Virus record (IMG/VR): IMGVR_UViG_3300033075_000861
Coordinates: 20,291-84,290 of that record
Direction: 5' to 3' (one strand)
DNA length: 64,000 nucleotides
From: a virus
Lineage: Duplodnaviria > Caudoviricetes
Shown here: positions 17,676 through 17,813 of the stretch, piece after piece
Position numbering within the stretch: the stretch's first letter is position 1
Layout: the number at the start of each line of letters is the position of its first letter
Notes under the pieces: generated by a model
Seen by the model: the letters and a program-made list of their open reading frames with translations, nothing else
Told to the model about the DNA's origin: nothing
Database searches by the model: none
Made by a program: the position numbers and the translations under genes

Positions 17676-17813
17676 TGACGCTGGTCGGCATCGAACCGAC
17701 ACCACAGCACTATCCCCAACGATCCTCTCCCTTTGTGCTACAGGTATGGGAACCCCTGTGTCCGTAACTATTCGGGGACGTGTTATCTGAGGCCCGCCCT
17801 TCGCGGTGCGTCA
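17676..17813 (-). ncRNA. tRNA-like RNA with T-arm and multi-hairpin core
   Basis: TGACGC/GCGTCA terminal stem, GTCGG-TTCGATG-CCGAC T-arm, three internal hairpins. Confidence 0.6.

Follow-up and report, generated by a model that had tools for sequence, protein, structure and literature searches.

A conserved, predicted non-decoding RNA with a tRNA-like frame in the tRNA operon of a huge phage

The window, i.e., the whole 64,000-nucleotide stretch of DNA analysed here, spans bases 20291-84290 of an 84,290-bp IMG/VR virus record, whose completeness is given as 17% by CheckV. It codes for a tail sheath, a ribonucleotide reductase, a helicase and Mre11/Rad50-like proteins, and homologs of its Mre11 are found on phage contigs of 250-670 kb. 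Because of these proteins and of the contigs carrying the Mre11 homologs, the record is best regarded as a fragment of a huge myovirus-type phage.

A tRNA operon runs on the minus strand from ~14447 to 20306. ARAGORN identifies 15 tRNAs in this operon and Rfam two more, all of them for Leu, Ser, Tyr, Phe or Cys. Scattered among them are HNH-type endonuclease genes. Two paralogous HNH genes (phrog_10822) and an endonuclease VII-like gene lie between tRNA genes, which can be compared with segB in T4. The tRNA-Cys(GCA) genes at 17290-17369 and 17588-17670 (both on the minus strand) are unusual for this type of tRNA, with a length of 80-83 nt and an extended variable region. ORF124 (16903-17274, minus strand) encodes a 123-aa protein, P0124, that is conserved at 52-72% identity and has no putative function assigned; its homologs are found in or beside tRNA arrays for P0125, P0127, P0128 and P0129, and elsewhere for P0126 and P0131. 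A comparison of the array in the window (14447-20306) with those of L044, L048, L008, L045 and L046 reveals that a mostly class-II tRNA array (Leu, Ser, Tyr) is located upstream of Mre11/Rad50 across a clade of ~250-670 kb phages. The array is complete in LR756511.1, a 595-kb phage. The genes around the feature studied here are:

17817-17900, minus strand: tRNA-Leu(CAA), upstream neighbour (ARAGORN; Rfam tRNA, 53.9 bits)
17588-17670, minus strand: tRNA-Cys(GCA), downstream neighbour; its 83 nt include a long variable region (ARAGORN; Rfam tRNA, 43.4 bits)
18096-18683, minus strand: HNH endonuclease gene (phrog_10822)
18889-19380, minus strand: HNH endonuclease gene (phrog_10822)
16570-16875, minus strand: endonuclease VII-like gene

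The initial annotation placed a structured RNA between tRNA-Leu(CAA) and tRNA-Cys, and ARAGORN confirms both neighbours. The gap between them is filled by a 138-nt element on the minus strand (17813..17676), separated by 3 nt from tRNA-Leu(CAA) and by 5 nt from tRNA-Cys(GCA). Below, RNA numbering is used, where the window position is 17814 minus the RNA position. A covariance model derived solely from the copy in the window matches a second one over its full length at L053:2658-2787 (86.7 bits, E 5e-19). L053 (Logan ERR2586215) is a contig of a related phage that was reached through homologs of ORF124, which gave contigs spanning arrays; its array-embedded protein is 67% identical to ORF124. 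The parts of the element are:

17676-17813, minus strand: the whole predicted tRNA-shaped RNA gene, 138 nt (self-match; homolog on L053; flush between tRNA genes in both phages)
17808-17813, minus strand: 5' strand of the acceptor-like stem, UGACGC (RNA 1-6), pairing with 17676-17681; invariant
17794-17806, minus strand: D-like hairpin CCGC-GAAGG-GCGG (RNA 8-20), CCGC 8-11 pairing with GCGG 17-20; pair 9:19 covaries
17772-17793, minus strand: 5' strand of the long arm (RNA 21-42), consisting of GCC, U, CAG, a bulged AUAA and CACGUCCCCGA; compensatory changes
17762-17772, minus strand: invariant block AAUAGUUACGG (RNA 42-52), identical in both copies, with changed flanking stems
17740-17759, minus strand: hairpin 2 (RNA 55-74), an invariant ACAGG/CCUGU stem with a variable loop
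17730-17737, minus strand: invariant block CACAAAGG (RNA 77-84), identical in both copies
17701-17719, minus strand: 3' strand of the long arm (RNA 95-113), partner of the covarying pairs of the 5' strand
17684-17700, minus strand: T arm GUCGG-UUCGAUG-CCGAC (RNA 114-130); pair 114:130 covaries
17682-17683, minus strand: unpaired C131 and A132 between the T stem and the acceptor 3' strand; invariant in both copies
17676-17681, minus strand: 3' strand of the acceptor-like stem, GCGUCA (RNA 133-138), with no encoded CCA (folding and two-copy comparison)

In the minimum free energy (MFE) fold of the window copy, -52.1 kcal/mol, the acceptor, D and T helices are kept, 21-27 pairs with 107-113, and 32-42 pairs with 95-106. 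The first base of AAUAGUUACGG also belongs to the predicted pair at the end of the arm, while the remainder is an unpaired junction strand. The acceptor-like stem has six Watson-Crick pairs, the same in both copies, with pair probabilities of 0.54-1.0. It is not a 7-bp acceptor stacked directly on the T stem: six pairs are followed by an A7/A132 mismatch and a bulged C131. A7, on the opposite strand of the acceptor/T junction, is likewise unpaired and invariant. The junction linkers are 1, 0, 0 and 2 nt long, and the T and acceptor stems are separated by a conserved bulge of 2 nt. Taken alone, the window copy has a weak MFE z-score of -1.82. The architecture is the same when the L053 copy is folded alone; its MFE is -51 kcal/mol and its z-score -4.34, and none of 200 shuffles is as good. 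The tRNA-like frame is more than chance, because relaxed ARAGORN recognises it in the element and in only one of 100 shuffles. The T arm is also among the very few canonical T arms found outside called tRNAs in a 6.6-kb region.

According to the initial annotation, the anticodon arm is replaced by a core of three hairpins. All the stems that it listed are present where it put them, including GCC 21-23/GGU 111-113, GUCC 35-38/GGAC 51-54, ACAGG 55-59/CCUGU 70-74 and AGCAC 75-79/GUGCU 104-108. As a fold, the core does not hold. Its energy is -37 kcal/mol, or -40.7 kcal/mol when refolded under constraint, i.e., 11-15 kcal/mol worse than the MFE. In L053, the third hairpin (75-79/104-108) loses four of its five pairs and the first hairpin two of four, so that of the hairpins proposed only hairpin 2 (ACAGG/CCUGU) is retained. 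The pairing between GUCCCCGA and UUGGGGAU, which had been offered as an alternative, is instead the conserved one and part of the covarying long helix. Another helix, 46-52/71-77, which appears in the MFE and uses AAUAGUUACGG, is rejected, with two of its pairs broken in L053.

The comparison of the window with L053 consists of two members in one pairwise alignment fitted by the covariance model, in which 99 of the 130 aligned columns (76%) are identical. As only two members were found, the covariation comes from this one pairwise comparison. Fifteen substitutions fall on paired positions of the long-arm fold, and pairing is kept in all of them. Seven compensatory double changes account for 14 of these substitutions (9:19, 23:111, 26:108, 33:105, 34:104, 38:99 and 114:130); for instance, 9:19 in the D stem changes from C-G to U-A in L053 and 114:130 in the T stem from G-C to U-A. 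The remaining substitution, at 35:102, changes G-U to G-C. No pair in the acceptor stem, D stem, long arm or T stem is broken in either copy. When the 31 substitutions are placed at random, on average 9.2 of the 34 pairs are broken, and in only 4 of 200,000 trials is none broken. Sliding the partners by 1-3 columns lowers the pairing from 96% to 32-54%. The RNAalifold consensus has the same architecture.

The compensatory changes back the D hairpin, the T arm and the long interrupted helix (21-27/107-113 and 32-39/98-106, ~14 bp). Covariation speaks neither for nor against the acceptor stem and hairpin 2, as both are invariant. The T loop is UUCGAUG in the window and UUCAAUG in L053, i.e., UUCRAUG is conserved, and the D loop is GAAGG and AAAGG, respectively, with the GG kept. 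Both copies have the T arm of a tRNA together with the D-loop G18 G19, and the elbow signature is kept throughout (G53-C61, U54, U55, C56, R57, A58 and the D-loop GG). Differences are found in the loop of hairpin 2, which varies in sequence and length, 3' of CACAAAGG, where there are indels of 3 and 2 nt, and at the base after the acceptor stem, which is C in the window copy and A in L053. In the folds and the alignment, the conserved architecture consists of an acceptor-like stem of 6 bp, a D hairpin of 4 bp, a T arm of 5 bp and an interrupted rod of ~14 bp. This rod takes the place of the anticodon arm and ends in a junction domain of ~55 nt, which contains the invariant hairpin stem as well as AAUAGUUACGG and CACAAAGG.

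The copy in L053 is 130 nt long. It directly follows tRNA-Tyr, and 4 nt separate its end from the gene that comes next, a 127-nt tRNA (L053:2792-2918, plus strand) with a ~55-nt insertion, which is matched over its full length by the Rfam tRNA model at 50 bits. The window and L053 share the order HNH gene, Leu, a spacer of ~130-150 nt, Leu and then the element. The immediate neighbours are Leu-CAA before and Cys after in the window, and Tyr before and the insertion-bearing tRNA after in L053. Even with these different neighbours, the element lies flush with the boundaries of tRNA genes in both phages, and it is best described as an autonomous unit. In the window, the spacer at 17901-18048 (minus strand) itself contains, within a long terminal stem, the T arm GUAGG-UGCAAAU-CCUAC and after it a closed acceptor-like hairpin with the stem CUCGGCC/GGCCGAG. 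This fold resembles a permuted or YrlA-like topology, and the syntenic gap in L053 is 131 nt (2332-2462). Units with a canonical T arm and no ARAGORN call are also seen at ~1160-1300 and ~1310-1430 of L053 and at ~3900-4040, 6600-6710 and 6715-6815 of L048; those of L048 include two in tandem with acceptor stems and odd anticodon-region loops.

We suggest that the element is probably the gene for a non-decoding, tRNA-shaped RNA of ~138 nt. It lies on the same strand as the tRNAs of a phage tRNA cluster and almost certainly has no decoding capacity, as in the small stable RNAs of the T4 rnaC/rnaD kind. The elbow-type mimicry proposed in the initial annotation stands, and so does the presence of a non-tRNA domain, which is novel solely in the sense that no Rfam family matches it. 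The Rfam and homolog checks proposed there yield no match in Rfam, and one homolog with pairwise covariation.

It is also conceivable, but improbable, that the element acts in cis on the operon transcript, as processing punctuation or as a folding or decay barrier, and not as an RNA acting in trans. It is situated inside a polycistronic tRNA operon that also holds HNH endonuclease genes, and tRNA-like structures are generally known to be able to direct cuts by RNase P and RNase Z. However, the flanking tRNAs need no extra punctuation, the element is kept whole though its neighbours differ between the two phages, and the invariant unpaired blocks at the tip of the rod would be superfluous for punctuation.

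A decaying tRNA pseudogene or functionless spacer would agree with the absence of the element from several relatives and with the weak folding z-score of the window copy. This is nevertheless very improbable. The 15 of 15 substitutions that keep pairing, where 9.2 broken pairs would be expected, argue against it, as do the two invariant unpaired blocks. The compensatory changes by which the homolog keeps the structure also speak against an ordinary spacer. Moreover, in blastn between the two arrays the element-bearing segment is 71% identical and tRNA-Ser(gga) 74%, while most other spacers are unalignable. The identity of the element thus appears to be in the same range as that of the tRNA segments that can be aligned between the arrays.

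The intact top half formed by acceptor and T arm, with its invariant acceptor sequence, could also suggest an RNA that is aminoacylated outside normal decoding, tmRNA-like or serving as an amino-acid donor. We consider the chance of this slight. The initial annotation had excluded tmRNA on the lack of G3-U70, and rightly so: no tmRNA is found by ARAGORN at relaxed thresholds or by the Rfam tmRNA models, and position 3:70 is A-U. The base at the discriminator position differs between the copies (C vs A), and the purine-rich stretch GGGAGAGGA, which resembles a ribosome-binding site, is not conserved in L053. A 16-codon ORF starting at UUG95 is not conserved there either.

The element is not a canonical tRNA, as it lacks both an anticodon arm and a match to RF00005. 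This tRNA model (at least 29 bits) matches neither 17676-17813 nor L053:2658-2787 at E-values up to 10, and no Rfam family matches either copy. A conserved 5-bp anticodon stem with a 7-nt loop, U33 and an anticodon is not found in the two copies, and the element almost certainly reads no codons. With canonical tRNAs (RF00005) it shares the acceptor-like stem, the GG of the D hairpin, the T-arm signature, the position in the operon and a tRNA-like spacing. It differs by the lack of an anticodon stem-loop and a variable loop, by the 6-bp acceptor and by the 5-nt D loop.

A decoding tRNA with a removable insertion ("intron") in the anticodon arm is hardly tenable. Such oversized tRNAs are known from huge phages, with a conserved insertion in those of Lak megaphages (Devoto et al. 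2019, PMC6784885), and one adjoins the homolog (L053:2792-2918). The Lak genes resemble the element as genes of the tRNA region that are far longer than a tRNA, but they keep an anticodon after removal of the insertion, while the element has no conserved anticodon loop, so a spliced decoding tRNA is very unlikely. In its relaxed intron mode ARAGORN does call tRNA-Val(aac) with a 60-nt intron in the window; but this call works only with a displaced acceptor stem that has two mismatches, in L053 the call is Gly(tcc) and its intron, of 43 nt, is placed elsewhere, column 29 (the equivalent of U33) is G in L053, the proposed 3' strand of the anticodon stem is deleted or changed there, and the fold would destroy the covarying helix. 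Neither copy matches an Rfam tRNA or group I intron family. There is no bulge-helix-bulge motif either: the bulges are 4 nt and 0-1 nt long and 3 bp apart, not 3-4-3. A hammerhead core at CUGAUGA just upstream of the element was also rejected, as its stem II and GAAA do not fit and it has no Rfam hit.

For the non-decoding tRNA-shaped RNA that we favour, the following route can be proposed. The element would be transcribed within the polycistronic tRNA operon, and from what is known of tRNA maturation RNase P would cut at its 5' end, and RNase Z or exonucleases would act at its 3' end. The acceptor/T-arm minihelix and the elbow are the features recognised by RNase P, RNase Z and the CCA-adding enzyme. 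Processing by these enzymes may be expected because the element offers the minihelix and elbow that they read, and CCA would probably be added. The released unit would be a stable RNA of ~140 nt, like its tRNA neighbours. An L shape is plausible; as the linkers differ from those of tRNA, tRNA-like stacking and RNase P cleavage are assumed. The tRNA body could provide processing, stability and access to the tRNA-binding machinery, while the tip of the rod may be the working part, which binds a protein or RNA partner.

It can be speculated that the element, as a decoy or sponge, draws off a host factor acting on tRNAs; this is our preferred guess, and a tentative one. In a broad functional class of phage RNAs, so far undescribed, which we likewise regard as doubtful but possible, the top half of a tRNA would secure processing and stability and open the way to tRNA-binding proteins, and the rod would display a bait. 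With a similar degree of doubt, this bait, i.e., AAUAGUUACGG and CACAAAGG, might neutralise a tRNA-directed defence nuclease of the host or capture a tRNA-modifying or translation factor. Should this broad class be correct, RNAs of the T4 rnaC type would finally be given a function. The defined structure and the two invariant single-stranded blocks provide a handle for pull-downs, deletions or decoy tests. A site at 13781-13791 (minus strand), which follows at a distance of ~30 nt an ORF located immediately beyond the end of the operon, is complementary to AAUAGUUACGG at 10 of 11 positions, which may be chance.

T4 has long been known to encode stable RNAs other than tRNAs in its tRNA cluster. 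The T4 rnaC (species 1 RNA, 139 nt) and rnaD (119 nt) are located in the T4 tRNA cluster beside the homing endonuclease gene segB, and their functions were still unknown in 2022 (PMC9697503). The likeness to the element lies in a non-tRNA RNA of ~140 nt among tRNA genes, in an endonuclease gene within the cluster and in the canonical T arm CCGGG-UUCGAAU-CCCGG near the 3' end of rnaC. However, there is no sequence similarity to either T4 RNA, and neither alignments nor folds indicate any meaningful homology of the element to rnaC or rnaD. The MFE fold of rnaC has a 3-bp terminal stem and no D hairpin, while the element has the full acceptor/D/T frame and a covarying rod. Host range and phage group also differ from T4. 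The element is best classified as a real and conserved new family within a known kind, that of T4 rnaC. It would be a second, unrelated family of this kind, in which the tRNA frame is clean and covariation backs the rod, and it shows that tRNA finders and Rfam overlook such genes in huge-phage operons.

Another known elbow mimic is YrlA, a bacterial Y RNA (RF02553), in which the anticodon stem is also replaced by another helix. In YrlA, however, it is the Ro-binding stem that is made by the two ends, and a loop closes the acceptor-like stem, while the ends of the element form the acceptor stem. RF02553 does not match the element, and a YrlA/Y RNA identity is rejected.

Searches for further homologs of the element gave none with blastn against GenBank phages, with one pattern against GTDB genomes, with a two-anchor pattern in JGI metagenomes, or with the covariance model in five related IMG/VR records and in LR756511.1, L048, L052 and L071. 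All matches of six sequence patterns in IMG/VR lie outside a tRNA-like frame; one of them (L066) looks like coding sequence. The best JGI match (L029) is inside a long ORF on a contig with 70% GC, folds no better than shuffles and is attributed to chance. In a search of sequencing runs, the only other holder is from the same study and has the identical sequence, none is RNA, and the runs with a small share contain only tRNA pieces. The synteny of Mre11 gave no homolog of the element among the contigs of relatives because these contigs break at the first tRNA-Ser; tRNA-Ser(tga) is the exact break point of several. The ORF at 20779-22140 has no real homologs. As L048, with a syntenic array, and LR756511.1 both lack the element, it is not a core gene of the clade. 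LR756511.1 has 64 tRNA hits, and the matches of 102-127 nt to the tRNA model at 291311-291437, 48527-48647 and 288201-288302 represent further oversized tRNA genes.
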